A stretch of 64,000 nucleotides of DNA from Candidatus Levyibacteriota bacterium (GCA_003152105.1 PLZJ01000002.1:753713-817712), one strand, 5' to 3'. Shown: positions 8,931 through 55,385, counted from the first letter of the stretch. The notes: generated by a model not told the origin, from the letters alone. Numbers and translations are program-made.

Positions 8931-9557
8931 TTATTTTTTAAACTTTTTAGTAAGTTTTAATTTATGTTCAATATAAAAAAGTATAAGAAGCACTAAGGCA
9001 ATGACAATTCCAATTTCGAATTTATGGAATATTGGTCCAAGGGTAGTCCATTTACTGCCAACATAGTAACCAAAATAAATTAAACATGCACACCATACTA
9101 GGGAACCAGTAAGGGTATAGATGCAAAATCGCTTTAAATTCATTTTAAAGGCTCCAGCAGGTAATGAAATAACGTAACGAAGGCCTGGCAATAGTTTTCC
9201 AATAAACACGATTTTACTGCCGTATTTATCAAACCAGATTTCTGCTTTTTTATATTCATGTTCAGAAAGCAATATAAATTTTCCATATTTTCGAATTAAG
9301 GTTAAGATCACATGATCTTCTAAAAAATAGCCAATACCATAACCAATTAAGGAGCCCGTTAAGTCACCAAGTGAAGCTACTAAAACTATTAGTGGGAAAC
9401 TAAATACACCGTTGTGAGTTAGATATCCAGTAAATGGGAGAGTGATTTCAGAAGGTACGGGAATTAACGCAGAACCGAGTGCCATTAAGAAAAAGACGCC
9501 AAGATAGCCAGTTGAGTGAATAATTTGTATAATAAGGGACGAAAGTAGTTCAACCAT
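8931..9557 (-). CDS. DedA/SNARE-associated family membrane protein
   Basis: GYLGVFFLMALGSALIPVPSEI... is the DedA core and the protein is multi-TM. Its start abuts the rsmI start with no spacer. Confidence 0.6.
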   Translation of the reverse strand: MVELLSSLIIQIIHSTGYLGVFFLMALGSALIPVPSEITLPFTGYLTHNGVFSFPLIVLVASLGDLTGSLIGYGIGYFLEDHVILTLIRKYGKFILLSEHEYKKAEIWFDKYGSKIVFIGKLLPGLRYVISLPAGAFKMNLKRFCIYTLTGSLVWCACLIYFGYYVGSKWTTLGPIFHKFEIGIVIALVLLILFYIEHKLKLTKKFKK

Positions 9558-17498: not shown

Positions 17499-18461
17499 AT
17501 GATTGACACAATTGATCCTGACAATCAACTTGCAATAAACAATTTAAACAACAAATATCCAGAATTCCCAAACTCCAAAAAATTGGAATTCCAGGACAAA
17601 GAGTTAATAGAAAAACTCTTACTTAACTTTCCACCCTATTCTGATTTTAACTTTTTAAGTTTATGGAGCTATAACACAAAGGATGATATAGAATTTTCAA
17701 TACATAACAATAATATAATTTGTAAAATGAGAGACTATATCACTGGCGAATTTTTTTATACGTTTGCTGGATCAAATTCTCCATTTTCAACAATAGAAAC
17801 AATATTTAAATACTTACAAGAACATAAATTACCGTTACTTTTAAAGATAGTTCCGGAAACAAGTATTGACCAAATCCAAGTAAAGCAGAGATTTAATATT
17901 ATTGAGGATAGAGATCAATTTGATTATATTTACTCTATTGAGGGCTTCGCGAACTTAAAAGGAGGAGATAATGTTAAAATTCGAAATTATTGCAATAGAT
18001 TTAAAGAACTTTATTCAACTATTAACCAAAAAACTTTAGATCTATCTAATTTAAACGATCAAGTAATTTTTTTATCAATATTTGACAGATGGAGACAATT
18101 TAAAAATCAAGATAAAGAAGCAATTACCGAAAGACTTGCCCTAGAAAGACTTTTTCAAATATCAAGTCAGGTTGATAATTTATATAATATTGTATTGTAT
18201 GACGTTGATAAGCCAATAGGTTTTTTTATCGGGGAACAATGTAAATCAGAATATGCGATCAGCCATTTTGCTAAAGCTGATTCTCAAAATTACCATGGCA
18301 TCTATGCTTACTTATATCATAAATCTTCAATGGATTTATTCAATCTTGGTTATAAATATGTTAATTATGAGCAAGATTTAGGCATTCCAGGGTTAAGAAG
18401 ATCCAAAGAGCAAATGCACCCTGTTTACTTTTTAAAAAAGTATTCTATTTCACCTTCTTAG
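17499..18461 (+). CDS. hypothetical protein, DUF2156-like (GNAT-fold, MprF C-terminal-like)
   Basis: The pattern NFPPYSDFNFLSLWSYN...NIICKM...FAGSN resembles the DUF2156 N-terminal half, and FFIGEQ...HFAKAD is acyltransferase-like. The call rests on memory of the family pattern. Confidence 0.35.
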   Translation: MIDTIDPDNQLAINNLNNKYPEFPNSKKLEFQDKELIEKLLLNFPPYSDFNFLSLWSYNTKDDIEFSIHNNNIICKMRDYITGEFFYTFAGSNSPFSTIETIFKYLQEHKLPLLLKIVPETSIDQIQVKQRFNIIEDRDQFDYIYSIEGFANLKGGDNVKIRNYCNRFKELYSTINQKTLDLSNLNDQVIFLSIFDRWRQFKNQDKEAITERLALERLFQISSQVDNLYNIVLYDVDKPIGFFIGEQCKSEYAISHFAKADSQNYHGIYAYLYHKSSMDLFNLGYKYVNYEQDLGIPGLRRSKEQMHPVYFLKKYSISPS

Positions 18462-23215: not shown

Positions 23216-23617
23216 TTAGCCTTTTTGCTTTTTGTATTGTTTAAAGAGTTGATTCGCTAAGCTGCCTAAGTGCCTACTTCGTGTGTTGTGTGGAAGTAGT
23301 GCGCCTGAAAAATTTTTAGGAATATGAAGCAATTCATGTATAAGAACTTTTTGCTTTTCGTCACTTGTTAGTTTATCAAAATGTTTTGATAATACCTCAA
23401 TAACATATGCTGGTTCAATCTGTAGGGCGTGTTGAAATATCTTTGGAAATGACCAAATTCTTGCATAAGCTCTGGCCTTAGAACCATCTGTTCTATAACA
23501 ATATAGCTTTGTACTATCGATATAGGGAAGATCTATTACACCCAATATTTCAACAATATCATTTTTAACATCTTCAGCTTCGCTCCATTCGAGTTTAAGT
23601 GACTTCTTTTTAGGCAT
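23216..23617 (-). CDS. putative HExxH zinc metallopeptidase-like protein (SprT/DUF45-like)
   Basis: LIHELLHIPKNFSGALLPHN carries an HExxH...H arrangement in a 133-aa protein. Confidence 0.35.
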   Translation of the reverse strand: MPKKKSLKLEWSEAEDVKNDIVEILGVIDLPYIDSTKLYCYRTDGSKARAYARIWSFPKIFQHALQIEPAYVIEVLSKHFDKLTSDEKQKVLIHELLHIPKNFSGALLPHNTRSRHLGSLANQLFKQYKKQKG

Positions 23618-23620
23618 AAA

Positions 23621-24166
23621 TTAGGTATGTTTATCAGCTATATTCGAAGCACCATATGCAAAAGGTTTTGTTTTTGCAACATAACCACTTCCAGTTACCA
23701 TTCCAACTACTTCCTTAATCATAGATCTTGTTTCACCATGCTCGCCAACATCAATATGAATTTCCAAGTTATATTTTGGCATTTTCCCATTTAGCGATTT
23801 TTGCAGTATTGGCACAAATACTGAGGCAAATTCTAATGAAGTAGAAGTTTCTTCGTACACTTTTTGACGAAGTGTATGAATATCACTTGCAAACTTTCTT
23901 TTCCAAAAATATCTACCTCCATACCCACGTCTATAAACAACAAGTGCAGTTACTAGATGAATTTGTTTTTTTCCTGTTGATTGATGAATTCTTTCTTGAG
24001 AATCAGTTCCAATAACTAAGCTATATGTTGCACTTGGATCTTCTTCTAAAAATGATTTAATATGGGAAACAATATCACTTGTTAAAACCTTTCCGTGTGT
24101 TAAACTCTCGAACTCTTCTTCTATTATGTTAGTTGTTTTATTCATATTTATATATGCAATAGCCAT
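23621..24166 (-). CDS. YkuK-like RNase H-fold protein (DUF458)
   Basis: HIKSFLEEDPSATYSLVIGTDSQ resembles the YkuK family N-terminus (..IGTDSQ). Confidence 0.4.
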   Translation of the reverse strand: MAIAYINMNKTTNIIEEEFESLTHGKVLTSDIVSHIKSFLEEDPSATYSLVIGTDSQERIHQSTGKKQIHLVTALVVYRRGYGGRYFWKRKFASDIHTLRQKVYEETSTSLEFASVFVPILQKSLNGKMPKYNLEIHIDVGEHGETRSMIKEVVGMVTGSGYVAKTKPFAYGASNIADKHT

Positions 24167-41667: not shown

Positions 41668-41777
41668 TGTTGCATTATAGTACAGATATGGTTTGTTAGA
41701 TAGTTTTTTGACATAAAGTAGCTAGAACCTGACTACTTTATTGACAGAATAAAGTTTTACAATTACTATGTCTGCAA

Positions 41778-42809
41778 ATGCCAAGAGAATTTGGTCCTGC
41801 AATTACTAGTATTGGGAAGGGATTACCCGAACATGCGTTTAGCAATCAACAAATAATTGATGATTTCGGCGTTGATAGTTCTGATGAATGGATAAGAACC
41901 AATGTCGGCATCAAGCAACGATATATTGCAGGCCCTGAACAAGCAACTTCTGATTTCGCAGTTGCTGCGGCAACAAATGCACTTGAACGTGCCCGTTTAA
42001 AAGCATCTGATATAGATCATGTTATCGTAGCTACTGCAACGCCCGATTATCTATTTCCTTCAACTGCAGTACTTGTACAAGATCGTTTAGGCGCAAATGC
42101 AGGCGCACATGATGTAATGGCCGCATGTACAGGAGGTATTTATGCACTTGCAGATATGTGTTCTATGCATGAAGCCGATTTAATCGAAATTAACAAGTCG
42201 CTAGTTATTGGAGCTGAAACTCTTACTAGGCATGTTAATTGGGAAGATAGGGGAACTGCAGTTTTATTTGGCGATGGAGCAGGTGCAGTAGTTATTGAAA
42301 ATATTCCAAATCCTGGACTTATGAAATTTGTTCTTGGTGCTGATGGGTCACAAGCGAAAAGTTTATATATACCCTCAGGTGGAAGTCGGAATCCTATTAC
42401 AGAACAAGTACTAGAAGAAGGTAATGATGCAATTATTATGAATGGGCCAAAAACATTTAAACATGCTGTTAACCGAATGAGTGAAGCGGCTGAAGAAGTA
42501 ATGCAAAAAGCACATTTAACAGATGCGTTAGGAAATATTGATACAAGACATATAGATCATGTTATCCCACATCAAGCAAATGTTAGAATTATGAATGCAG
42601 TATGGAATCGTTTTGGTCTGCCAGTCGAAAAAAGAGTATCGAAAATTGAAAAATATGGAAACACATCTGCTGCTTCTATTTTTATAGCAATGAATGATGC
42701 ATATGAAGATGGGACCATAAAAAAAGATGACGTATTACTACTTGTGGCATTTGGCGCTGGTTTTACGTATGGAGCAGCTGTTTTACAATGGCAATTAGAA
42801 AATAAATAG
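41778..42809 (+). CDS. fabH: 3-oxoacyl-ACP synthase III (FabH-like KAS III)
   Basis: SDEWIRTNVGIKQRYIA is present, with Cys in AACTGGIYAL, His in VIPHQANVRI and Asn in GNTSAASIFIA. The catalytic triad is complete. Confidence 0.75.
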   Translation: MPREFGPAITSIGKGLPEHAFSNQQIIDDFGVDSSDEWIRTNVGIKQRYIAGPEQATSDFAVAAATNALERARLKASDIDHVIVATATPDYLFPSTAVLVQDRLGANAGAHDVMAACTGGIYALADMCSMHEADLIEINKSLVIGAETLTRHVNWEDRGTAVLFGDGAGAVVIENIPNPGLMKFVLGADGSQAKSLYIPSGGSRNPITEQVLEEGNDAIIMNGPKTFKHAVNRMSEAAEEVMQKAHLTDALGNIDTRHIDHVIPHQANVRIMNAVWNRFGLPVEKRVSKIEKYGNTSAASIFIAMNDAYEDGTIKKDDVLLLVAFGAGFTYGAAVLQWQLENK

Positions 42810-42818
42810 TGCTATTTA

Positions 42819-43676
42819 TTACGAAACAAATATATCTTTATTTGCTTGTCTTTTTCCGACAAGTTGCATCCAGTCTCTTGGAAATGATTCTAGTTTTCCT
42901 GCCTTTTTCAATTTAACAAACATTTCATGTGCCGATTCTCTTAATACTTTTCTCGCCACTTCAACTGGAACTCCCGGCAATGTTCCTCCTGCAAAATCAG
43001 CATAATCACAAATTGCATCTACGTCACCCTCGTTCATTTCCACAGCTACTGTTTCTGCTGCAACATCAGTAATTCCTTTTGCTCTTGCAATTCCTACATA
43101 CTCTTCTTGCGTATGTTTAAAATAATTAAGAGGCTTTCCAGGAGAGTATCCCAAAGCTTGTGCTTTTTGTTTACCTAGAACCGCAAGTTCTCCCCATACT
43201 CGTGCTCTATTTCTTGGTGTATTTATATATCCACAACTTATGACAATTACTCCATCAGGACGTAATACACGAGCTGTTTCTTCAAATGCTTCTTCCACAT
43301 CGGTTAAGTGAATACTATTTGCAAAAACGACTACATCAAATTTACCGTCTTCTGCTGGAATTTCTTCAGCTTTACCAACTGCGAATGTTACCTCAGGACG
43401 AAAAGCAAATTTACGCCTTGTTGAAGCAATTGCACTTTCATCTGGATCTACTTCAAGAATTGTCCCACCTGCCAATACTTTATCCTCCTCTAGCAAGAGT
43501 TCAGTCATTGCTCCTTTTCCAGATCCAAGATCTAGTATATGTAGCGCTTGAGGAGCAAGTTGAATAGTCTGTCGATTAATTTCTCTATAAAAACGACGTC
43601 TAGTAAATCGCTCATAAGTATGATCAAAATCAGTAGGAACAGGTGGTGGTGTTTGATGTGTTTGTTCTGGGCTCAT
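42819..43676 (-). CDS. class I SAM-dependent methyltransferase
   Basis: Motif I ILDLGSGKGAMTELL is followed by the post-I acidic ILEVD and motif II FDVVVFANSIH. Confidence 0.65.
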   Translation of the reverse strand: MSPEQTHQTPPPVPTDFDHTYERFTRRRFYREINRQTIQLAPQALHILDLGSGKGAMTELLLEEDKVLAGGTILEVDPDESAIASTRRKFAFRPEVTFAVGKAEEIPAEDGKFDVVVFANSIHLTDVEEAFEETARVLRPDGVIVISCGYINTPRNRARVWGELAVLGKQKAQALGYSPGKPLNYFKHTQEEYVGIARAKGITDVAAETVAVEMNEGDVDAICDYADFAGGTLPGVPVEVARKVLRESAHEMFVKLKKAGKLESFPRDWMQLVGKRQANKDIFVS

Positions 43677-43797
43677 AATTAATTTAGACTGATAATAGTA
43701 GCTTTATCAATGGAAGTCAACAACTATTCCTTGAAAGATCTTGCAAAATAAAATAAAAACTGCTATTGTCTCAAAAGATTAGATCAACTCAACAATA

Positions 43798-45324
43798 ATG
43801 AATAAATCTGCAGAATATCTTGAAGCAAGAGCAGAAACATTGGGTGCACATCTTCATAAAGAACCTTCAAGTGGCGTTTCGATTACTGGATATGCTGCAT
43901 TAACTCCACTTGGTGACACGCAGGAAACTTTTGAAGGAATGTTAAATGGGCAGTCAGGTGTGGTTGAATTTGATGCAAATAATTTTGCGGTAAATGTAGC
44001 AGCACCTGTAAAACATTTCGACCCACTAGAACATTTTGATAGACGCGCACTCCGAGGTGTATCGTACGTTACTGCAATGGCTGATGTATTAACACAAAGA
44101 GCTGCCTTAGATGCTGGACTTATTCAGAGCACAAATGAAATGTTGGGCGACGAATTACCAAGTGGACAGAAACAAGATAGACATAAAATAGGAAGCTCAA
44201 TTGGAAGTGGCATTGGTCCAACCCCTAATATATTACGTATTTATCAACAATTATATAAAGATGTTGAAGGATTGGAAAGTAAATTAAGGCAAACAATTAA
44301 TCCTGAAGAAAGAAGTGAATTAGAAGGTGAAATAAAAGCAAAAATTAGAAAAAACTCTGAAAGAGTAGGACCATTGTGGGGACTGGAAATGTTCCCTGAA
44401 GAAGTAAATTCAGATCCATCTATGAAACTTGGTTATTCTGGACCAGGTATTAGCGATACTGCAGCATGTGCGACTGGACTTTCAAATGCAGTCGAATCTG
44501 TTCGAAAAATAAAAGAAGGTGAAAGTGAAAAAGATTTTGGTGGAGGTGTAGAAGCTATCTTAACTGATCCAAATAATATTCATATTGGTGACATTGGAAT
44601 TGCGTCATTTGCAGCACTTCGCCTTGTGCTTTCTACAGAATATTTTAATATTTTAAAGAAAACAATAACTAGTCCTGAAGAATCTAGCCGGCCTTATGAT
44701 CGAAATAGAGATGGATTTGTTCTGGGCGAAGGTGGAGCAGTTGTTTTATTTGAAAGATCTGATTTAGCAGCAGCAAGAGGAGCAAACGTACATGCAGAAG
44801 TTGTCGGATACAGTAAATCACTGGATGGTAAAGGTCAAACAGATTTGGATGTTGATAATGTTGCAAGAACTATTCTTGAAGCGTGCGAAAACCGTTGGAC
44901 TTATGAAATAGAAGTTCCTGATGTTATATTTGCCCATGCAACAGCTACAAAATCTGGCGACAGAGCAGAGGCAAAAGCATTGTATAAAGCATTTGGAAAG
45001 TTACTGCAAGACATTCCCATTACTGCAAATAAAAGTAATATCGGTCATTTAGCTGGAGGAGCGGGAAGTGTAAATCTAGCAATGGCGATAGAAGCACTTC
45101 GCCAACAACAAATTCCTCATATTTTAAATTTAGTTAATCCTAGATTAAATTTAGAAAATCCGGAAGAAGAAGATGATGAAGAAATAAACCATGTCGTTTT
45201 TGTTAGAAATGAGCCGCTTAAAGGAAACTTTCAAAAAGCACTTATACTTGGGTATGGTTTCGGGGGAAATAATGCTGCAATGTTGATTAGAAGACCAAAG
45301 CTTCATAACTTACTAGTTTATTAG
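43798..45324 (+). CDS. beta-ketoacyl-ACP synthase I/II-like ketosynthase (FabF/FabB family) with insertions
   Basis: The N-terminus VSITGYAALTPLGDTQETFEGMLNGQSGV leads to the active-site Cys DTAACATGL, then HATATKSGD and NIGHLAGGAG, a CHH triad. At 508 aa it carries a charged insert and an acidic C-terminal stretch EEEDDEE. Confidence 0.7.
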   Translation: MNKSAEYLEARAETLGAHLHKEPSSGVSITGYAALTPLGDTQETFEGMLNGQSGVVEFDANNFAVNVAAPVKHFDPLEHFDRRALRGVSYVTAMADVLTQRAALDAGLIQSTNEMLGDELPSGQKQDRHKIGSSIGSGIGPTPNILRIYQQLYKDVEGLESKLRQTINPEERSELEGEIKAKIRKNSERVGPLWGLEMFPEEVNSDPSMKLGYSGPGISDTAACATGLSNAVESVRKIKEGESEKDFGGGVEAILTDPNNIHIGDIGIASFAALRLVLSTEYFNILKKTITSPEESSRPYDRNRDGFVLGEGGAVVLFERSDLAAARGANVHAEVVGYSKSLDGKGQTDLDVDNVARTILEACENRWTYEIEVPDVIFAHATATKSGDRAEAKALYKAFGKLLQDIPITANKSNIGHLAGGAGSVNLAMAIEALRQQQIPHILNLVNPRLNLENPEEEDDEEINHVVFVRNEPLKGNFQKALILGYGFGGNNAAMLIRRPKLHNLLVY

Positions 45325-46971
45325 CTTAGGAATAATTGATCGCTTTACTACAGTCGCTTGCAAATCTTTTATGCCTCCGATAATTGTTCCTTCAGAAGAA
45401 ATAACGATATTACTACCAAATGTGCGTTTATCTAATTGAACAGTTTCTGCGTCATAACAAATTCCATCTCCAGCTCTGACTGTATGATTATCAAAAAAAT
45501 CTGTTTCCCCAATTCTTAAAAATAATGGCATTACATTTGTATCAATTTTTTCAAGATGAACAATGCCAGCTGCTTGGGCAGCACCTTCTATCAACTGATC
45601 TTCAAGTAAAGCAACAACTTCATCATTAGTAACTTGCTTAACCTTTAATCCTTTAATGCTCGCAGTAATTTTATTGTCATGTTCTCGAATTATAGAAACA
45701 TTATATGTGCCATCATCACAGAGCTGCGGTTCAACCCGCAATACTGTTTTTCCATCAGCAGATACAATTTCTTTAAACTCAACTTCTCTAAAGCCTACTA
45801 ACTTAAGATTTCCATCTCCTAATCCTAAATGAGATGAAATTAAGCCAATTGTTTCAATTGCTGCTCTAATTTGTTTGTGTCCTGGAAGTATTTTTGGCAA
45901 TCCACTTTCTGGAGCAAAATGCCCTTCTGCTAATAACTGATCAACATGAACGACACCATAATATGCGCTAGGATCGCCTTCTTTTTGTTTTACCGTTGTC
46001 ACAAGTTGCTGATCATTTTCTCTTGTGACTTGATTTTTTGTTGCTATTGCTCTTCCAATTCCAGATTTTCTATCTTCATCTTGATTATTTCTTTCCATAG
46101 TTTGTACGTAAACCTGTTGTGTTCCATACCACTGCTCAAGCATTGTTTGCGCATCTTCGATATCATTAAAAAATTCAGTATAACCGCTTGGAACTGATGG
46201 ATTTTTTAATAAAGCGATAACTTTTTCTCCTACCTCTGATGTTGGTACAGTTCTTGGGAGTCCAAGTTTATCCGATATAACATTATGCATATCCTCCGCA
46301 GAATACTGACCATTTGACTCTCTTTTTGCTGCTATATTAAATACCATAACATTTGCAGTATCTGGTACGATTGGTGGCGTTACTTCTAAAAATCGTATAC
46401 CCCGCTCTGCCATTTCTGCTTGTCGCTTATGAAGTGATTGTAAATCTTCATATTTGTGTCTGGCAACATTGTCGTATTGTGAAACTATTGATATGGCACC
46501 TCTGAGTTGTGGGTCAAAATGACCTGGCACACTTTGCAATCTAATGATTACACCTCCGTCATTCATGATAGGCAAAAATTGAGTTACTAAATCATTTGAA
46601 GCGTCACTGTTTAGCGCTTGAGTTGATCCAGATGTTACAAGAACTACATAATCTACTTTACCATTAAGCTTTTCTGCTGCTTCTTGAAATAACTGCTTTC
46701 TCCCTTCAGAAGTCGACATATCAGCAGATAAACCATAAGCTGTACCATTATTTTCTGAAACATCATGCAGCACCGTATTTGCCCGCTTTTGCTTATCTCT
46801 AAATGAAAATGCTACCGTTACTTTTTCAGCTGCCAATGCTTTAACGATTGCAGCTCCAATATCTCGATTACCACCAGATACAAAAGCGGTCTTGTCAACT
46901 AAAGAAAGTTCACGATTTATCTGCCTGTCTTGTATTATTTGATCTAATGTTACTGCTTGTTCTGGACTCAT
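45313..46971 (-). CDS. fusion protein: N-terminal SDR with Y-x6-K (enoyl-reductase-like FabI/FabL spacing) + FabZ-like hot-dog dehydratase + extra C-terminal region
   Basis: The N-terminal Rossmann fold has AFVSGGNRDIGAAIVKALA and YDNVARHK (Tyr-x6-Lys). The middle has HFAPESGLPKILPGHKQIRAAIETIGLI, matching the FabZ GHFP...PG...EA.AQ pattern. Total length is 552 aa. Confidence 0.5.
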   Translation of the reverse strand: MSPEQAVTLDQIIQDRQINRELSLVDKTAFVSGGNRDIGAAIVKALAAEKVTVAFSFRDKQKRANTVLHDVSENNGTAYGLSADMSTSEGRKQLFQEAAEKLNGKVDYVVLVTSGSTQALNSDASNDLVTQFLPIMNDGGVIIRLQSVPGHFDPQLRGAISIVSQYDNVARHKYEDLQSLHKRQAEMAERGIRFLEVTPPIVPDTANVMVFNIAAKRESNGQYSAEDMHNVISDKLGLPRTVPTSEVGEKVIALLKNPSVPSGYTEFFNDIEDAQTMLEQWYGTQQVYVQTMERNNQDEDRKSGIGRAIATKNQVTRENDQQLVTTVKQKEGDPSAYYGVVHVDQLLAEGHFAPESGLPKILPGHKQIRAAIETIGLISSHLGLGDGNLKLVGFREVEFKEIVSADGKTVLRVEPQLCDDGTYNVSIIREHDNKITASIKGLKVKQVTNDEVVALLEDQLIEGAAQAAGIVHLEKIDTNVMPLFLRIGETDFFDNHTVRAGDGICYDAETVQLDKRTFGSNIVISSEGTIIGGIKDLQATVVKRSIIPKLIN

Positions 46972-46975
46972 ATTG

Positions 46976-47872
46976 CTATTTAATAAGCGTCATCGCTTGA
47001 ACAACTTCAGGTTCTCTATGCGTTACTAAATATACTATCGCTCTCGCTGCATCTTCTGGAGTAAGATCATCGGAAGAGTTAAGAGAATCTCTTAAAAATG
47101 TTCTTTGCTCATCAGTTAAATCAGCTGTCAATGGAGTATCTACTAATGCAGGTCTTAGTATGCTTGTATAAATATCTCGTTTTACGTTTAACTCCGATGC
47201 AGTTCCAATTGCTATCGCTTCCATGGCACTTTTTGAAGCACTATAATTTGTTTGTCCAGGCAACATTGCATGTTTTCCAATGCTGGAAACGTAAACAATG
47301 TCTCCTCCTTTTGGATCTCTATTTCTAACCATTTTTTTGACTGCTGCTCGAGTTACAAAAAAAGCACTATCGACATTTGTACGCATCACATCATACCATT
47401 GATTCGTTTTCATTGTTAATATAAGGTTATCTTGTTTTGTGCCAACATTATTTACAACAACATCAATTCGTCCAAAAACATCAACTACTCCATTTATTAA
47501 TGCCTCTGCTCCTTCTTCTGTAGTAACATCAGCCGGAATAAAAACAGCATCCGCTCCGTCTCCAATCGCTTTTATTTCTTGAGCAGATAATTCACCCACT
47601 TCTTGCCTTTGAGGTCTGCCATTAATTACTACTTTCATACCCATTTCACCAAATAGCCGTGCGGTAGCAAAACCAATTCCTTGCGTAGAACCAGAAATAA
47701 CAGCCACTTTTCCAGCTAGTTTTTCTCGATCAACTGGAGGAAGCATATCAGGAGAGATACTGTTACCAAGTACACTTGAGATATTTTCTGGCGCAAGACT
47801 TATATTTATTTTCTGCGTAAGTGCTACATTACTTTGATTAGAGGATGATTCACGATCTTGTTCTGAGGTCAT
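46976..47872 (-). CDS. SDR-family 3-oxoacyl-ACP reductase-like (FabG-like)
   Basis: It has KVAVISGSTQGIGFATARLF, NVG and YSASKSAMEA (classical Y-x3-K), with a roughly 50-aa N-terminal extension. TTGACT-17-TATCAT lies upstream at 47890-47930 on the minus strand. Confidence 0.7.
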   Translation of the reverse strand: MTSEQDRESSSNQSNVALTQKINISLAPENISSVLGNSISPDMLPPVDREKLAGKVAVISGSTQGIGFATARLFGEMGMKVVINGRPQRQEVGELSAQEIKAIGDGADAVFIPADVTTEEGAEALINGVVDVFGRIDVVVNNVGTKQDNLILTMKTNQWYDVMRTNVDSAFFVTRAAVKKMVRNRDPKGGDIVYVSSIGKHAMLPGQTNYSASKSAMEAIAIGTASELNVKRDIYTSILRPALVDTPLTADLTDEQRTFLRDSLNSSDDLTPEDAARAIVYLVTHREPEVVQAMTLIK

Positions 47873-47952
47873 ATATTAGTTTTGAAAATGATACTACTGA
47901 GTAATAGTTGAGTCAATATGTAGTTTTATAAAAAATTGACAAGCTATTTTCA

Positions 47953-50900
47953 ATGTGCAATAACTTATATATGAGCAAAATTGCTAATAACTCATTACGT
48001 GAAAATAGCTCACATTTAGTAAGAAACTATTGGGATAAATTTTTAAAACTACCGACAATAATTAAATACGCAGTAGTAATAATGGTTTTTATTCTACTTT
48101 CTATTCCAACTGGACTATTAACAAGACAAAGTTTATTTAATTTTGCTTCACAAACCCAAGGATTTCATGTCATTTCTAATACACTTTATTATAATGACAA
48201 GCCATTTAAAGCATGGGGATTTAATATGGTTGGTGCTTTAGGACAAGCAAATTGTGGAGATGGAACAAGTTCTGATCCAAATGGAAAAGTTGCTGCTCAA
48301 AATTTTAACAATAATGAACTCTCTTATATGGAAAAAAATTGGGGTGCTCCAACTATTATTAGAATTCAGGTCTCTCAACCGGCATTAAGCGGTAAATTAT
48401 CTTCTATTAGCTGGCAAAATTACGCAAGTCAGATAGAAAATGATATTAAATTAGCAGAAAACAATAAGGTCAATGGGATTATAATTGCCATGCAAAATGG
48501 ACAAAATGGCTGTGGAAATAGTGCATCTTATCCTTCGAATGATACAAATGTAGCATGGATGAATTTAATATCAAATACAACAATTAAATCAGATCCTCAG
48601 GTTCTTCTTGAACTATATAATCAGCCTCAAAATAACGGAAATAATAGTAATCAATGGCTCACTTGGAAATATGGGAATATGCGAAAAGGAAGTACTTGTC
48701 GAGCTTACTCTGGAAATATCTTTGGAATGGAATGCTTGGCAGAAAATATTAGAAATAGAGGAGTAAGCAACGTATTAATTGCAGATGGAGCAGACAAAGC
48801 ATCAAATTTCCTAGGAATTAGCCAAAAAGACACCAATACAAATTCTCCAAATTACAATCAAAACTATTTGTTGGACGACCAAAATACTGTTTACGGAATT
48901 GAACCATATGGGCAAGATATCAATTCAAATAATAACACATCGAAGATTATATGGGATGCGAATTTTGGTACGCTTTCTCAAACTAAACCTGTGTTAGTTA
49001 CTGAATGGAATATGACGTTACAAAGCTGTACTCGAAACGCCTTAACAACTCAAGAGGTACAAGCACTTGGGTATCCAACTCCAAATAGTAACCAAACATA
49101 TTACCAATATAATGGGGAAGATAATACATCACCATTTTTCTCATACTTAAGTGCTCACAATATCGGATTAATTGTTAATAGTTTTGACTCGTCAAATACA
49201 ACAATAAGAACTACAAATGCTTCTACTGGTAACTGGAATAATTGGTATCCAAGTAAATGTGAGATGGCAGTTGGAATTAACAATAACCTACCAAATAGCA
49301 GTGCAGGAAACATATTGCCTTCTGGACTTATATATAATATTGGCGTAGGATGGGATGTTTTGCAACAATTCCGACAGTGGGCAGTTTTAACAGACAGAGC
49401 ATTTTTACCTCATATTATTGCTGGCTATTGGCTAACAAATCCACAAGATATTAAAATAGCCGCGAAAGAAAAAGTACAATTTATTCATACGTATGGTGAC
49501 TTCAATAATTTACCAGGAAATGCTTATCCTATACTTAAATCAAATAATATGAAAGTTATTTCTTCAGATTTATTAACACCCCTTAATGATTATGGTTGTT
49601 GGCACTATAGAATGTATCATCCAACCTATAATTCATACATTGCATCATGTAAATCTATGCCAAACGGGTATGCTAATTTTCAAGCCAATGCTTACGGACT
49701 CCAAAGCGCAAATAATTTATTGCTAACAAGAATAAAAAATAAATTAATTGCAATTAGAAACAATACCAAATACGCTTCTTATTTATCTTATCTTTATGTA
49801 ATCGATGACTGGGGTAGCGGAGATTTTAAAAGTGCAAAGACACCTCTGAAAGAAATTAATGGCTTAATTCATACCATTATTCCAGGCGTACAAAGTATTT
49901 GCGGATTTTCGTTTGGGAGCGTACCATTTAAATCACACGCAGGAACAGTAAGTTATTTTGCTAATCCCTTAAATAATTATTCACCGGAAGGTTGTGATAA
50001 TGTCAGTGGATATGGATATGCGGTCAGATATAAAACAGATAGTGCCAAAAATTATGATTGGAAAATGCCAGGCATAATGGAAGCATGGCAAAAACAGTTA
50101 ATAGCAAACGGAATAAGTGATTATCCGAATTGGAATAAAATAGTAAATGTAATTGGTACGGGCCAGGTATTTGGAAGCTACACAGGTAGTTACGTTATTC
50201 CTTTATATGACACTGCAACCGCTAAAAAATTAAATGTACCAATTTATCAACCAATAATTGATCAGGAAACAGATTTTTGTAAGTTAGGAATGTCTTTATT
50301 TTTTTATGACTATCATGCTAGTGGAAGTTATTATACTCCTGCAAACAATACAAGTATTGATGAAGGAGTTAAACAATCTATAATACAATGTAATCAAATC
50401 TGGAACACGATTACTGTTGTCACCCCTACTTTTACTCCAACGCCAACGCTTACACCAACGCCAACGCTTACACCTACACCTACCCCAACCCTATCTCCAA
50501 CGCCTTCTCCAACGCCAACGCTTACACCTACACCCACTTTAACACCTACCTCTACGCCAACTCCACCTCCGGGATGTTTTTATAAACAACAAGAATGCAA
50601 TATTCACAAAGGTCAGGTTAGTTGCGGGCCAGAAATATTAATTTGTACAACTCCAACACCAATTACAGTTATAAATCCTGTACAAAACAAATTAATTAAT
50701 GGGTCATTTGATTTTGGTAATTTAACCGGCTGGACAACGTTTAATAAATCAGTGAATTCTAATACGGTTGCTATTGACCCATCAACATTCGTAAATGGCA
50801 ATTATTCTGTTAAAGCAACTATTAATCAGCCTGGAAAAAAAGAATGGTACTTTCAGTTAATGCAAGGTCCAGTACAGCTTAGCTTAAGCACAAACTATAT

Positions 50901-51162
50901 GATATCTTTTTATGCCAAGGCTTCTCAAAATAGGAGATTACAAGTATTTGTGCAAAACTCAAATCACATTCCATATTCAACGCAAAACTTTATATTGACA
51001 ACTACTTGGCAAAAATATTCATTTAATTATTTTCAACCTTCAACAGATGACAACGCAGCGCTAAAGTTTAATCTAGCTGATGCAGCAGGAAATATTTGGA
51101 TTGATAAAGTATCATTATCCCCGGTTCTGGTTAATATTGAGAATAAAGATACTTTACCGTAA
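47953..51162 (+). CDS. giant secreted/anchored CAZyme-like protein: N-terminal TM, glycoside-hydrolase-like domain, Pro/Thr linker, C-terminal CBM4/9-like domain
   Basis: [18 protein letters not shown] is present. ...LELYNQPQ... and LVTEWN are reminiscent of GH5-clan acid/base and nucleophile positions, but the assignment is weak. The PT linker reads [52 protein letters not shown]-terminal beta-sandwich has [14 protein letters not shown]...WYFQLMQ. The start may be the ATG at 47971, because 47953 lies in the spacer of TTGACA (47936). Confidence 0.55.
50424..50572 (+). repeat. tandem 6-9 nt coding repeats (ACNCCNACN..CTT) encoding a (T-P-T-L)n linker
   Basis: The degenerate repeat reads acgccaacgcttacaccaacgccaacgcttacacctacacc... 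Comparable PT tracts occur at about 52966-53020, 54780-54840 and 55188-55300. Confidence 0.6.
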
Positions 51163-51255
51163 CTGTTCACAAACTCAACTTATTTGATTATTTCTCTTGT
51201 AATTTGGTTGACATGCAAGATATTTTGATCTAGACTCAAAAAAGAAAGAATATAC

Positions 51256-52140
51256 ATGAATTATTTCTTTAAACATAAAATCCCTTTGTTTAAACAAAAA
51301 TTTTCATCATTAGATAAATTCCATAAGCTGAGCATAGGGATTGTATTATTGTTTATATTTGTAACCCCCTCGCTTGCACTTGTCACAAACTTATTCACTA
51401 ACGCCTCTTCCCTTGACTCATTCAGACTAGAGGCAGAACCAACTTCTACAAATAGTAATAGGTTATCTGGAAATGTTAGTGTGGTAACCGATACTAGTTC
51501 ATCTAACGGACAGGCTATACTATTTGGATCTAATGGAGTAAATGGTGCCAATGTTACTTTTAATCCATCAGTTATTCCCTTTTCTGCACCAGAGATAGGT
51601 AATCCATGGCACGGACAATATGAGTGGCAACAAGGACAACTGATCCCTTCACCATGGCCTGTTACAGATTCCTATCTTCGCTACGATACTGCGCCAACGG
51701 ATATAGGCTCTTGGGCTACTCTTGAACCAACACAGGGAAATTATGACTTCTCTTCAATTGATACAGCTTTGGCACAGGCAAAAGCAAATGGAGGCAAACT
51801 TGGAATAACAATTGCTGCTGCAAGAGGAGATATTACGGGTCAAGCATTTATACCAAATTATTTAATAAGTGATATGGCTGGAGATTCACAATCATACTGG
51901 AGTGGAGTTTCACCGGGAAATGGAGTATATGTGCCGGATTGGAATAATAGTTTTTTTATGACACGAGCGCAGGCTCTAATTAATGCGTTGGCTGCAAAAT
52001 ATGCAAATGACCCACGTCTTGGATGGATTGAAACCGGAATTTATGGAAATTATGCAGAGTGGATAAATGATGGTCTTCCAAATGGTCCAAGTGGTCAAAC
52101 ACCTGCTGTAATTACCGATGCAAATAAAAAAACATCATAG
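51256..52140 (+). CDS. N-terminal fragment of a frameshifted giant surface protein (TM anchor + DUF4874-like glycoside-hydrolase-like region)
   Basis: It has the TM IGIVLLFIFVTPSLALV. LRYDTAPTDIGSWATLEPTQGNYDFSSIDTALAQAKANGGKLGITIAAA is typical of the DUF4874 TIM-barrel family. It stops right after an A7 tract. Confidence 0.5.
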   Translation: MNYFFKHKIPLFKQKFSSLDKFHKLSIGIVLLFIFVTPSLALVTNLFTNASSLDSFRLEAEPTSTNSNRLSGNVSVVTDTSSSNGQAILFGSNGVNGANVTFNPSVIPFSAPEIGNPWHGQYEWQQGQLIPSPWPVTDSYLRYDTAPTDIGSWATLEPTQGNYDFSSIDTALAQAKANGGKLGITIAAARGDITGQAFIPNYLISDMAGDSQSYWSGVSPGNGVYVPDWNNSFFMTRAQALINALAAKYANDPRLGWIETGIYGNYAEWINDGLPNGPSGQTPAVITDANKKTS

Positions 52141-52223
52141 ATTGGTGGGTCAACTCTTTTCCTAAAACTAGAATCTTAGCAGTTATTGAAGAAGATGGAG
52201 ATCAATATGGATTTAAATATGCC

Positions 52224-55200
52224 ATGAGCTTAACTCCAAAACCTGGCTCTCCGGCTATTGGGTGGCGGTATAACAGTCTTGGGACCCTTGGACCAACTGC
52301 TAGTTATCTAACAGGACTTCAATATTGGGAAACACCACCACCAGCTGGTGCAGATGGAACAATACTATCGGAGCGATGGAAAACTGCTCCTGGTATAGTA
52401 GAATTTGGTGGTTTATCACCTTCTTCAACTACTGACTCACTTAATGATGCCTATACAGACGTGCTTCGTTACCACATTGATATGGTTGATGGAAGTTATT
52501 TTGATAACTGGAATAATTACTCAAGTGCTGAGCAGGCAACTTTGCAAAATATTATGGAACACTCGGGCTACAGAATTAGTCTTGATTCCCTAACACTGCC
52601 CTCAGTAGTCAGTCCAGGGAATAATTTTACAGTTTCTACTAATTGGTCTAATCTTGGTTCTACACCTGCATATAATCCATGGAATATCATGATTGAGCTT
52701 AAGGACTCATCTGGAAATGTTGCGTGGCAAGGAAAATCAAGTTTAGATTTTCAAACTCTACTTCCTACTAACTCAACAGGAACAGATATTCCAAATACTA
52801 CAACTGATACTTTCACAGTTCCTTCCAGTATTCCTTTGGGAACTTATTCTGTTTCTGTAAAAATAGTAGATCCAACAGGCTATTATAATCCAATGAATTT
52901 AGCAAATTCGGCAAAACAATCGGATGGAAGTTATTTACTTGGTCAAATTTCAGTTGGTAGCTTGGCTCCAACACCAACACTATCACCATCTGGAACTCCA
53001 ATAACTCCTACACCTATTACGAACTCGTCATTTCTTTGGCCAAATATACAAGGTAAAGTAGGAGCATTTTTTATAGGATTAAATAATAATTCAGATGTTG
53101 CACTAACTGCTGGGCAGGGTTTAAATCAAACTGTGCTTGATACAGTAAATCCAGGTAGTAGATTGGAAAATTTATATAATCAGTACAATTTTAAATACTA
53201 TGATTATTATGTCTGGAACCAAATCTACGGCAACTGTCAAACAAACCATGCAGCAGGATACGTTTGTCCATATTATCAAAACTCATCAAATCTACAGTCT
53301 GCATTAAGCGCAATTCAATCACATATTAATAGCAATAGTATTGCGACAGATAAAGCGGTAAGTGGATATGTCATTTTGGACGATTTTCCTGGAATTATTC
53401 CTCAAACATTCTTTGATCAAGTTGCAACTATGATACACAACGCCAATGCTGGATCAAATGGTATGACAAAATCAGCGATTTCCAGACCAACCATATGTGA
53501 CTTCGGAGGGTGGTTGGATTATAAGACAAGTGTAAACGGAGCTTGGAACCATAATGATAACGATATTACAAAACAATCTACAAATTTCTATCCTGCTGAT
53601 TGTGACATGGTCGAGCTTTATCCAGAATGCTACAACGAACCAGCAAATTATTCACATGGGGATTGGTGTGATTGGACAATGCAGGACACTACAGGAGGAA
53701 ATACGCCAAAAATAACTAGAGAATATAACATATTACAAAGTAAAGGTTGGGATATTACTAAAGAACCATTAATTGCCAATGCTCAGTCATATGGCTATAC
53801 CGCCGCCTACCAATCGGGAAGCGGAGTATATATTATTCCTCCTACAGGAATAGAGGAAAGTACTTTAATAAAGTCATATTGTGATACTGGAGCAACTTCT
53901 GTAAATGATTTTGCCTGGGATGATCCTGCTCATGCCTCAAATATTAAATCTGAACTTGCTAACGATTCAGGCATGTATAGCGGATTTTTGAGTGGTGTAA
54001 ATTACTGCAAATCTAAGTGGGGAATAGCTATGGGCCCTTCCTCATCCAAAATAGCAAATGTAAATTCATCATTTAATTTAATATCAATGCTTGGTAAGCT
54101 TGTGCAACATTTTACTTCTATGTTCAGTGCACACGCGCAAACCCTAACACCAACCACAATTCATTTGATTTCAGGTTACTCCGGCACCAATACTGGGGGT
54201 AACACAATTGTTTTTGGACCTCCAAGTGGATACTCAGCAGATGATGTAATGATTGCGCAAATTACAACCCAAGGAACACCAGGAATAACACCTCCTGATA
54301 GTAGTTGGAACGGTATTAAACGTACAAACACAGCTTCAAACTCTTTGGTTCAAGAATTATATTATCATGTAGTAAAAGCTAGTGAACCATCGACCTATAC
54401 ATTTACCTTCACATCCCCAGAACAAGCTTCTGGAGGAGTTGCTGATTATAGTGGAGTTAATACTTCAAATCCAGTAGATCAGGTTAATCAAGGATCAGCT
54501 CTTAACTCTAGTAATATTTCAGCCGCAAGCATAAATGTTAATGCAACCGGAGAAAGACTTATGTTTTTTGGAGGATCACTTTCGAATACATCCTTTACAC
54601 TTCCAACTGGCATGTCACAAGTATGGCAAAAAGAAAATACTGCCATTTCATCTAATTTAGCGGACTTATATACCAATGCTGGCTCAACTGGGGTTATAAA
54701 TGAAAGCAGTGCAGTTTCAGCAGATAATGTTGCACAAGATTTATTACTTCAACCAGCAGGTTCAACTTTTACAAATCCCACGCCAACTTCTACTCTTTCA
54801 ATATCTCCTACCCCAGTCTCAGCTTCACCTACACCCAGTTGTTCTCCTTTACCTAGTGGAAAAGGTACAGATGTTATTACCTTTACAGTACCAACAGGCA
54901 CTAACTCTTATAACGTCTGGTTTAGAATGAAAGTACCAACTTCTGGCGACTCAATTTATTCACAACTTACGGACAATTCCGGCAATGCATTTGGATGTCC
55001 ATCACAAATTATTGATAATAATACAGTAGATGGAAACTGGCACTGGATTCCTCAAGGTCAAAATTCCTTAACCCAGGGACAAACTTACACATTTACTTTG
55101 ACTGGAAATCAAGATGGAGTTAAAGTTGATGAAATAATATTGTCTCAAACATGTGGACCAACAGGAGTAGGCGATAACTGTCTAGCTGCTCCTACACCAA

Positions 55201-55385
55201 CACCTACCTTAACACCTATTCCTTCACCTACAGCTGTTCCAAGCCCAATTACAACATCTACTCCTACGCCTGTCAGACCTACTCCAACATCTACACCTCT
55301 AAGTTGCAAAAAACTTTCTATTAATTGCTATTATACAAATTTAAGTACCTGTTCTTATGTTTGCGGAGACACAAAACATAAGTAG
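52224..55385 (+). CDS. C-terminal part of the same surface protein (DUF4832-like + PT linkers + C-terminal CBM-like domain)
   Basis: The frame is open from 52128 (coding-like NIIDWWVNSFPKTRILAVIEEDGDQYGFKYA) upstream of the first ATG. It has PAIGWRYNSLG...W.TAPG and then multiple PT linkers. The C-terminus has NWHWIPQGQ..TYTFTLTGNQDGVKVDEIIL, a lectin/CBM-like sandwich. Confidence 0.55.
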   Translation: MSLTPKPGSPAIGWRYNSLGTLGPTASYLTGLQYWETPPPAGADGTILSERWKTAPGIVEFGGLSPSSTTDSLNDAYTDVLRYHIDMVDGSYFDNWNNYSSAEQATLQNIMEHSGYRISLDSLTLPSVVSPGNNFTVSTNWSNLGSTPAYNPWNIMIELKDSSGNVAWQGKSSLDFQTLLPTNSTGTDIPNTTTDTFTVPSSIPLGTYSVSVKIVDPTGYYNPMNLANSAKQSDGSYLLGQISVGSLAPTPTLSPSGTPITPTPITNSSFLWPNIQGKVGAFFIGLNNNSDVALTAGQGLNQTVLDTVNPGSRLENLYNQYNFKYYDYYVWNQIYGNCQTNHAAGYVCPYYQNSSNLQSALSAIQSHINSNSIATDKAVSGYVILDDFPGIIPQTFFDQVATMIHNANAGSNGMTKSAISRPTICDFGGWLDYKTSVNGAWNHNDNDITKQSTNFYPADCDMVELYPECYNEPANYSHGDWCDWTMQDTTGGNTPKITREYNILQSKGWDITKEPLIANAQSYGYTAAYQSGSGVYIIPPTGIEESTLIKSYCDTGATSVNDFAWDDPAHASNIKSELANDSGMYSGFLSGVNYCKSKWGIAMGPSSSKIANVNSSFNLISMLGKLVQHFTSMFSAHAQTLTPTTIHLISGYSGTNTGGNTIVFGPPSGYSADDVMIAQITTQGTPGITPPDSSWNGIKRTNTASNSLVQELYYHVVKASEPSTYTFTFTSPEQASGGVADYSGVNTSNPVDQVNQGSALNSSNISAASINVNATGERLMFFGGSLSNTSFTLPTGMSQVWQKENTAISSNLADLYTNAGSTGVINESSAVSADNVAQDLLLQPAGSTFTNPTPTSTLSISPTPVSASPTPSCSPLPSGKGTDVITFTVPTGTNSYNVWFRMKVPTSGDSIYSQLTDNSGNAFGCPSQIIDNNTVDGNWHWIPQGQNSLTQGQTYTFTLTGNQDGVKVDEIILSQTCGPTGVGDNCLAAPTPTPTLTPIPSPTAVPSPITTSTPTPVRPTPTSTPLSCKKLSINCYYTNLSTCSYVCGDTKHK

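Follow-up and report, generated by a model that had tools for sequence, protein, structure and literature searches.

We analysed a 64-kb window from a Candidatus Levyibacteriota bacterium (PLZJ01000002.1:753713-817712, part of a ~1.14-Mb scaffold) and suggest that five adjacent genes at positions 41778-47872 form a divergent, lineage-specific elongation module of the type II system that makes fatty acids (FAS-II), in a Levybacteria-like member of the Microgenomates, within the Candidate Phyla Radiation (CPR). This reading, in which the module is biosynthetic and probably carrier-dependent, has in our view a somewhat better than even chance; it draws on gene content, catalytic residues, folds, conservation and distribution. 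The region contains five intact long open reading frames (ORFs), matching their families far beyond chance and retaining their catalytic residues: a FabH-type β-ketoacyl synthase III, a class I S-adenosylmethionine (SAM)-dependent methyltransferase, a FabF-like ketosynthase (KS), a fusion of a short-chain dehydrogenase/reductase (SDR) with a double hot-dog dehydratase (DH), and a FabG-like ketoreductase (KR) (Table 1). The analysis confirms the coordinates and families of the five adjacent fatty-acid-type genes seen in the original prediction, and its view that they carry one FAS-II elongation cycle is supported as a statement of the coverage they could provide.

Table 1. Genes, domains and candidate promoters of the module (positions counted from the first letter of the window)
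Feature	Position	Strand	Key residues and remarks
FabH-type β-ketoacyl synthase III, 343 aa	41778..42809	+	Cys117 / His265 / Asn295
Class I SAM-dependent methyltransferase, 285 aa	42819..43676	-	Conserved KS partner in relatives
Divergent FabF-like (KAS I/II-type) KS, 508 aa	43798..45324	+	Cys224 / His380 / Lys412 / His417 / GFGG 487-490
Fusion protein, 552 aa	45313..46971	-	
Fusion, C-terminal double hot-dog dehydratase domain, residues 283-552 plus stop codon	45313..46125	-	His351, Arg369, Glu462/Gln466
Fusion, N-terminal SDR domain, residues 1-282	46126..46971	-	Gly motif 33-39, Ser147, Tyr166-x6-Lys173
FabG-like classical SDR ketoreductase, 298 aa	46976..47872	-	Ser197, Tyr210-x3-Lys214; N-terminal extension of ~50 aa
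Promoter-like site	41741..41769	+	9 nt upstream of fabH; 10/12 consensus matches; weak evidence
Promoter-like site	43692..43720	-	Upstream of methyltransferase gene, in 121-nt divergent intergenic region shared with KS; 10/12 consensus matches; weak evidence
Promoter-like site	47888..47916	-	Upstream of KR-fusion pair; 10/12 consensus matches; weak evidence

Both condensing enzymes retain the residues of their families. FabH scores above curated cutoffs (NCBIfam TIGR00747, 339.5 bits vs 292.1; PRK09352, 353.7 vs 249) and aligns with the solved T. thermophilus FabH 1ub7 (247 bits), including its catalytic motifs AACTGG (Cys117), PHQAN (His265) and GNTSAAS (Asn295). The KS has both ketoacyl-synthase domains, N- and C-terminal (PF00109 and PF02801); its Cys224, His380, Lys412, His417 and GFGG motif align to FabF 1j3n, and in a clade alignment the catalytic residues are invariant across 11 clade members and canonical FabF. 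At the same time it falls below the fabF equivalog cutoffs (TIGR03150, 239 bits vs 493.75; PRK07314, 233 vs 387) and is ~100 aa longer than FabF, mainly through an insertion at residues 110-177 in place of FabF residues 90-114, with a further, acidic C-terminal insertion; these insertions are confined to a sub-clade. Homologs of the KS form a clade of ~90 clusters at 33-63% identity, with canonical FabF appearing only after these at ~30%, and all named clade members are Microgenomates (Levy-, Roizman-, Shapiro- or Daviesbacteria). The decarboxylating Cys-His-His triad of the KS and Cys-His-Asn triad of FabH, with the thiolase Cys-His-Cys in neither, point to a biosynthetic direction.

The KR gene lies 4 nt upstream of the fusion gene and is co-directional with it. 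Its product matches adh_short (E = 3e-42) and the KR domain in Pfam, has FabG proteins as its top matches in the Protein Data Bank (PDB), and reaches 155.7 bits against the NCBIfam model 3oxo_ACP_reduc (TIGR01830), below the cutoff of 297.75. KR homologs of 49-51% identity adjoin the fusion gene in three related loci (L002, L005 and L017). With these alignments the residue-level claims made beforehand, namely the Cys/His/Asn triad of FabH, the Cys/His/His triad and unusual, ~100-aa-longer build of the KS and the Y-x3-K of the KR, were all borne out.

The fusion protein is the most distinctive component. In Pfam it gives an N-terminal adh_short match only, with no Pfam or NCBIfam match to FabZ, and whole-chain fold searches were dominated by generic SDRs; the C-terminal domain was modelled alone. 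The hot-dog sequence profile matches many solved FabZ proteins (best 4zw0, E = 6e-6), with the Glu462 helix aligned to the FabZ catalytic-Glu helix. A conserved GHF (His351)...LPGH stretch with PG at 363-364 marks the first hot-dog, in which Arg369 takes the place of a Glu found in short forms of the family, while the second contains an invariant helix, LLEDQxIEGAAQ, bearing Glu462 and Gln466 (IEGAAQ). His351, Glu462 and Gln466 are invariant in long forms. On reading the sequence we found no GHF counterpart in the second hot-dog, which, together with Arg369 at the Glu position, makes the domain a pseudo-dimer with one active site, as in dehydratases of polyketide synthases (PKSs) and FAS-I. 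This is similar to the DH domains of modular PKS and FAS-I (CurJ DH 3kg8, PpsC DH 4ooc), where each pseudo-dimer also has one active site, with His supplied by the first hot-dog and the acidic residue of an E/D-x3-Q motif by the second. Unlike those domains, the window DH lies outside any megasynthase, is paired with an SDR- rather than an MDR (medium-chain dehydrogenase/reductase)-type reductase in the order reductase then dehydratase, has Glu as its acidic residue as in FabZ (its motif, GHFxxxxxxPxxxPG with ExxxQ, is FabZ-like), and is nearer in sequence to FabZ than to PS-DH. The latter Pfam family gave weak matches in 6/29 homologs, all of them long forms (E = 6e-4), and none for the window protein.

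This architecture is rare. An exhaustive hidden Markov model (HMM) search of 1.84 billion representatives returned only 165 proteins with the double hot-dog domain, either fused (about 530-630 aa) or stand-alone (about 265-330 aa; for one such form FabZ was the only NCBIfam match). The fusion itself occurs in 31 clusters among 5.8 billion proteins, the named ones being Candidatus Levybacteria or Microgenomates group, and a pattern-limited search found the signature of its SDR domain in only 9 of ~185,000 Genome Taxonomy Database (GTDB) species representatives. In three shorter relatives (409-422 aa) both the His and the Glu sit in one hot-dog, and these proteins match FabA in Pfam (E = 6.7e-7). 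Single hot-dog short forms and stand-alone double forms thus exist beside the fusion, and together they illustrate from nature how a homodimer of the FabZ kind may turn into a pseudo-dimer of the PKS kind. No stand-alone copies of the reductase or DH were present within 10 kb at three loci with the KS but no fusion (L011-L013). The fusion had been described as an N-terminal SDR with Y-x6-K spacing joined to a FabZ-type hot-dog; the first part stands, as the spacing is invariant, whereas the hot-dog part proved to be double (~270 aa) and not a single FabZ domain.

Ser147, Tyr166 and Lys173 of the SDR domain are invariant in an alignment of 29 fusion homologs, giving Y-x6-K. Such spacing is that of the active sites of the enoyl reductases (ERs) FabI and FabL, and Y-x3-K is that of the dehydrogenases of type 2 multifunctional enzymes (MFE-2). 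The nearest curated family is PRK07806, at 96.3 bits below the cutoff of 162, so that the domain is not a member by score; the FabL model gives 33 bits (cutoff 328). A short-form relative (P0030) scores 131.6 bits against PRK07806 and then 62 bits against FabL, ahead of all FabG models, and a stand-alone homolog is a PRK07806 member (305.6 bits) with FabL as next-best model (98 bits full-length), again ahead of all FabG-type models; the latter homolog is encoded at 4073-4885 of locus L022, among ribosomal-protein, secY and adk genes of an Abditibacterium metagenome-assembled genome. PRK07806 seems to be a FabL-like family, of which we know of no member with a tested function. The window domain shares with FabL and PRK07806 an NADPH-type glycine motif and the Y-x-x-V-[AG]-x-x-K pattern, PRK07806 being its best curated match and FabL the next-best model of that family; it differs in its sub-cutoff scores and in a Ser147-Tyr166 loop about 8-9 residues longer than expected. 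From the invariant Y-x6-K, the presence of a separate classical KR, the lack of any other reductase in the module, the place of FabL as nearest characterised neighbour of PRK07806 and the fusion of the SDR to the enzyme of the preceding step, we infer that the domain acts as an NADPH-dependent enoyl reductase. For the coenzyme, NADPH is suggested under the SDR coenzyme classification by Arg36 of the glycine motif and by basic residues that follow strand β-2.

Taken as an elongation module, the five genes would work as follows. FabH would condense an acyl-CoA primer with a malonyl thioester, the FabG-like KR would reduce the 3-keto group, and the double hot-dog domain would dehydrate the 3-hydroxyacyl intermediate through His351 of its first half and Glu462 of its second. 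The resulting enoyl thioester would then be reduced with NADPH by the N-terminal Y-x6-K SDR of the same polypeptide, and the FabF-like KS would carry out later decarboxylative rounds of elongation. The methyltransferase may modify the primer, an intermediate or the product. An acyl carrier, a malonyl transferase and a malonyl-CoA supply are absent from the cluster and presumed to be encoded elsewhere. The most likely product would be acyl chains that go into lipids of the cell itself, whether built de novo or extended from scavenged chains.

The fusion could also be read as an MFE-2-like protein, in which a 3-hydroxyacyl dehydrogenase or ketoreductase is joined to a hydratase or dehydratase; the module would then have no enoyl reductase, and would yield hydroxy or unsaturated products or serve degradation. 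Peroxisomal MFE-2 indeed has an N-terminal SDR followed by a double hot-dog, the two catalysing consecutive steps, and fold searches with the SDR domain retrieve ketoreductases and dehydrogenases rather than FabI, with no significant enoyl-reductase match from the profile of its catalytic half. However, MFE-2 pairs a Y-x3-K, NAD+-dependent dehydrogenase with a MaoC-type hydratase, whereas the window protein has Y-x6-K and a FabZ-type His/Glu dyad, and its gene adjoins decarboxylating condensing enzymes. Pfam matches in the family are to FabA and PS-DH, with none to MaoC_dehydratas or hydratase-2 in any of 29 members at E <= 1. The characterised protein closest to the parent SDR family is FabL, Arg36 and the basic residues after β-2 suggest NADPH and with it a reductive role, and a separate classical KR is already at hand. 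We consider an MFE-2-like protein distinctly improbable.

Conservation among relatives supports the treatment of these genes as a unit. A core of methyltransferase, KS, fusion and KR recurs in various gene orders in L023, L005, L006 and L008, all from Levybacteria or Microgenomates. In L023, the closest relative (KS 63% identical), the genes run in the same order and orientation, methyltransferase(-), KS(+), fusion(-), KR(-), with no FabH or acyltransferase at the locus, and L008 has the same four genes with a short-form fusion. A larger version in L002, L005, L006 and L010 adds an acyltransferase (AT)-like gene, a Crp-type regulator and divergent FabH-like genes; L002 has no methyltransferase, and in L002 and L010 a second FabH-like gene replaces the KS. 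In L007 the fusion gene lies beside genes for RNase HII, DUF2130 and a holin, which are also the flanks of the window cluster.

The cluster had also been proposed to be horizontally acquired, partly on its slightly higher local GC content. The rise is real (0.379 vs 0.324 in other genes), but is confined to codon positions 1 and 2 (GC1 0.559 in the cluster vs 0.429 in other genes), while GC3 is 0.183 against 0.199 in the flanks (Mann-Whitney p = 0.18). It stems from amino acid composition, the cluster proteins being richer in Ala, Val, Gly, Glu and Arg, and native GC3 rules it out as a sign of horizontal transfer, so that composition gives no evidence of recent acquisition. As GC3 and the flanks syntenic with L007 indicate, the genes are native to this genome and, with the core recurring in related Levybacteria and Microgenomates, the claim of horizontal acquisition is not supported; within its lineage the core module appears to have been inherited. 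FabH differs in this respect: its nearest named homologs lie outside CPR (Bacillota, Omnitrophica, Verrucomicrobia and similar groups, ~43-50% identity), and the related loci hold only distant FabH-like genes (23-34% identity). Its own GC3 is fully native, and its pattern of homology would be compatible with an old acquisition or replacement. A 585-aa neighbour of one FabH relative (L024), considered as a cryptic KS, resembles neither the window KS nor any Pfam family. Elsewhere, the first 12,200 nt of L011 (a 591-kb contig carrying the KS-clade member P0110) hold a methyltransferase-KS-KR trio without the fusion, beside a phage-type integrase and a terminase fragment, a hint that pieces of the module can move between these genomes.

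A number of observations weigh against a FAS-II assignment. CPR genomes are generally reported to be without fatty acid synthesis (PMC7143001, PMC7242380). No acyl carrier protein (ACP) was found in the window by DSL-motif scan, by phmmer with AcpP probes or with a four-sequence carrier HMM, nor, at 24 related loci, in the 10 kb around the homologous genes by phmmer and the carrier HMM; these probes were sequences of E. coli and B. subtilis AcpP, joined in the HMM by act-ACP and AcpM, and the only control was the self-match of the four seeds. No FabD, AcpS, phosphopantetheinyl transferase (PPTase) or acetyl-CoA carboxylase (ACC) gene was seen among the scanned ORFs and called genes of the 64-kb window. 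None of KS, KR and the SDR domain reaches the curated cutoff of its NCBIfam model (FabF, FabG and FabL, respectively), and their substrates may therefore differ. Profiled by its catalytic half, the SDR domain had no significant match to any solved enoyl reductase among PDB sequences, a null result that neither supports nor excludes this activity, and whole-domain fold searches return generic classical SDRs (ketoreductases and dehydrogenases) and not FabI. The fusion gene occurs on its own in five relatives and is thus not strictly dependent on an adjacent KS. Finally, ordinary FAS-II does not explain the tight linkage of the methyltransferase to the module.

The missing partners had been anticipated, and the absence of a nearby ACP or malonyl transferase held up in motif, phmmer, HMM and Pfam scans, as well as in tblastn searches, in which the AT-like and PPTase proteins of relatives had no match anywhere in the window. 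Those relatives are informative in themselves. L002, L005, L006 and L010 encode FabD-like acyltransferases with GxSxG and xAFH motifs, of which only the L002 copy reaches Pfam Acyl_transf_1, the other three being too divergent. All four (L002 11649-12788, L005 11771-12976, L006 11644-12666, L010 3993-5156) have a C-terminal transmembrane helix. In L005 an Sfp-type PPTase lies ~9 kb away (25.7 bits vs a cutoff of 25). The FabD-like genes and the PPTase suggest a phosphopantetheinylated carrier in at least some of these genomes, and by analogy the window module is probably carrier-dependent as well.

A different explanation of the gaps is a carrier-independent (CoA-based) or non-canonical-carrier synthesis acting on acyl-CoA thioesters, which would account for the absence of ACP, AcpS and FabD at once. 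The lack of an ACP in the window and in all 24 related loci fits such a route, as do the clade-specific insertions of the KS and the absence of even an AT-like gene from L023. There are precedents. Probst et al. (2020) reported that some Nealsonbacteria hold FAS-II homologs without ACP synthase and FabD and raised an ACP-independent route, as proposed for archaea (PMC7242380), and an archaeal ACP-independent FAS has been described (bioRxiv 10.1101/2024.07.05.601840). The window resembles the Nealsonbacteria case in being CPR with FAS-II homologs, in having no visible ACP synthase or malonyl-CoA:ACP transacylase and in posing the same question of an ACP-independent pathway; going by the description in that paper, the two are set apart in that Nealsonbacteria belong to Parcubacteria and the present genome to Microgenomates, and in that PMC7242380 mentions no ER-DH fusion, Microgenomates-specific KS clade or linked methyltransferase. 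On the other hand, the window FabH is canonical and above its curated cutoff, and the KS keeps the FabF architecture. The relatives' FabD-like transferases and the one Sfp-type PPTase imply a phosphopantetheinylated carrier, and only ~6% of the genome is visible here. FabH and FabF families normally use malonyl-ACP, and in many bacteria acpP lies apart from some of the fab genes. We regard a carrier-independent pathway as improbable.

Small conserved neighbours in the relatives (109-135 aa, ~292 aa and 83-115 aa) were considered as hidden carriers and rejected, having no ACP-probe match and occurring also without FAS genes; the conserved 109-aa and 293-aa types have no PP-binding match in Pfam. 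Two of these types make up a conserved gene pair that follows the cluster in L002 (15973-17185), with equivalents in L005, L006, L007, L010 and L019, and that is found also without it. One member is a ~292-aa protein with an N-terminal membrane anchor (motif GDAGPG..TGKHLGGSPEVM) and the other a 109-135-aa helical protein; neither has a family match.

The methyltransferase is, as foreseen, a class I SAM enzyme of generic type (Methyltransf_11, E = 1.8e-19, with further Pfam matches to Methyltransf_25, 31 and 12). No curated NCBIfam model attains its cutoff, and a PDB search retrieves generic methyltransferases only. Homologs of 36-40% identity occur in the clusters of L005, L006, L010 and L023, and methyltransferases were also called in L008 and L011. 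One use for such an enzyme would be BioC-like priming, in which a malonyl thioester is O-methylated and then extended by the KS, KR, DH and ER to an omega-carboxy acyl chain of pimelate type or longer. This would explain a core that has the methyltransferase yet often lacks FabH, as L023, L008 and L011 do, all with methyltransferase and KS, and BioC is among the weak NCBIfam matches (TIGR02072, 39.3 bits, E = 6e-10). That score is, however, far under the cutoff of 184.95 and exceeded by several unrelated methyltransferase models, no bioF, bioA, bioD, bioB or bioH-like genes are present in the window or related loci, and the generic Methyltransf_11 fold is uninformative on substrate. BioC-like priming is very improbable.

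The methyltransferase could alternatively tailor or C-methylate the product of a specialised-metabolite pathway, whether a methylated lipid or a polyketide-like or aryl-polyene-like compound, and it was to a specialised, polyketide-like product rather than bulk FAS that the original prediction leaned. The enzyme is a conserved member of the module, the KS, KR and reductase domain are too divergent for the housekeeping equivalog cutoffs, the DH has a PKS-like double hot-dog fold, and a Crp-type regulator lies inside the cluster in some relatives. In addition, a Candidatus Daviesbacteria relative has two adjacent KS genes resembling a KS/chain-length factor (CLF) pair (L012 10001-12754; 487 and 427 aa, with only 23% identity between the second and the window KS). 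However, only one KS, with an active Cys, is encoded in the window, and it is not accompanied there by a second KS-like ORF, CLF, ACP, cyclase, thioesterase or adenylating enzyme. This KS matches FabF (156 bits) better than the type II PKS KS of actinorhodin (114 bits), the full reductive set of KR, DH and putative ER predicts saturated chains, and no specific family, PKS C-methyltransferases included, matches the methyltransferase. We found no positive evidence for the specialised product and consider it unlikely.

When compared with bacterial FAS-II (FabH, FabF, FabG, FabZ, FabI/FabL, AcpP, FabD), the module that we favour as a FAS-II variant shares discrete enzymes for condensation, ketoreduction, dehydration and, as proposed, enoyl reduction, along with a curated FabH, the Cys/His/His/Lys of the KS, the Ser/Tyr/Lys of the KR, the FabZ-type His/Glu dyad of the DH and the Y-x6-K of the reductase. 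It departs from that system in the fusion of DH and ER, in a double hot-dog pseudo-dimer where FabZ is a homodimer, in KS, KR and reductase scores under the equivalog cutoffs with KS insertions totalling ~100 aa, in the methyltransferase as an integral neighbour and in acpP, fabD, acpS and acc genes that are not clustered, with none seen in the window. We found no prior description of fatty acid synthesis genes in Levybacteria or Microgenomates, or of an SDR-hot-dog ER-DH fusion, in the open-access literature, and three features appear to be undescribed: the ER-DH fusion with its double hot-dog, the KS clade specific to Microgenomates and the tight linkage of the methyltransferase. Partial FAS-II sets in CPR are already known from Nealsonbacteria, and the present module adds a finding of like kind from another CPR superphylum. 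A bolder proposal is a self-sufficient minimal FAS of new architecture in Microgenomates, made up of the clade-specific KS, the KR, the ER/double-hot-dog DH fusion and an obligatory methyltransferase, with no canonical AcpP, AcpS or FabD and working on CoA or an unrecognised carrier; we judge this decidedly unlikely.

The common description of CPR bacteria (Patescibacteria) is that they cannot make fatty acids and rely on hosts for their lipids (PMC7143001, PMC7242380). Levybacteria and their relatives have a conserved, catalytically intact and natively encoded FAS-type module. If it is active, this lineage at least could build or elongate acyl chains, which would change the host dependence inferred for it. 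The module also puts more sharply the question whether the FAS enzymes of bacteria can do without ACP.

The remainder of the window is CPR-like in gene content, with glycolysis genes, UvrABC, LexA, Ddl, CysRS and several secreted glycosidase-like proteins, in line with the earlier picture of a minimal genome of host-dependent type. Neither the ORFs scanned with Pfam nor the genes called at 37.4-57.7 kb include Pls, ACC, FabD or AcpS, several ORFs at 32.8-37.2 kb and 58.8-63.8 kb lying outside the Pfam scan. Only two other lipid-related genes were seen, one at 17499-18461 for a protein with the C-terminal domain alone of phosphatidylglycerol lysyltransferase (LPG_synthase_C) and one at 8931-9557 for a DedA/VTT membrane protein. 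Of the regulatory signals, promoter-like sites in the region (26) were not above chance (22.5±4.5 in shuffles), and neither were the counts from a terminator scan.

Directly adjoining the cluster, at 47953-55385, are genes for three large secreted-looking proteins (1069 aa with a Pro/Thr-rich linker, 294 aa with a weak GH42 match and 1053 aa with DUF4832), whose GC is also raised (0.34-0.39), here via codon position 2. A putative phage metallopeptidase (PhageMetallopep) gene lies at 23216-24166 beside an RNase H-like gene, amid housekeeping genes. The ORF at 673-1680 overlaps a tRNA-Gly gene (651-723), and its real start is probably further downstream. Among the related loci, L015 is the same contig as L006 and L016 the same as L004, and six GTDB or third-party annotation (TPA) records titled 'uncultured Gammaproteobacteria bacterium' (L014-L017, L019 and L020) carry Levybacteria-like loci; their labels are probably wrong.

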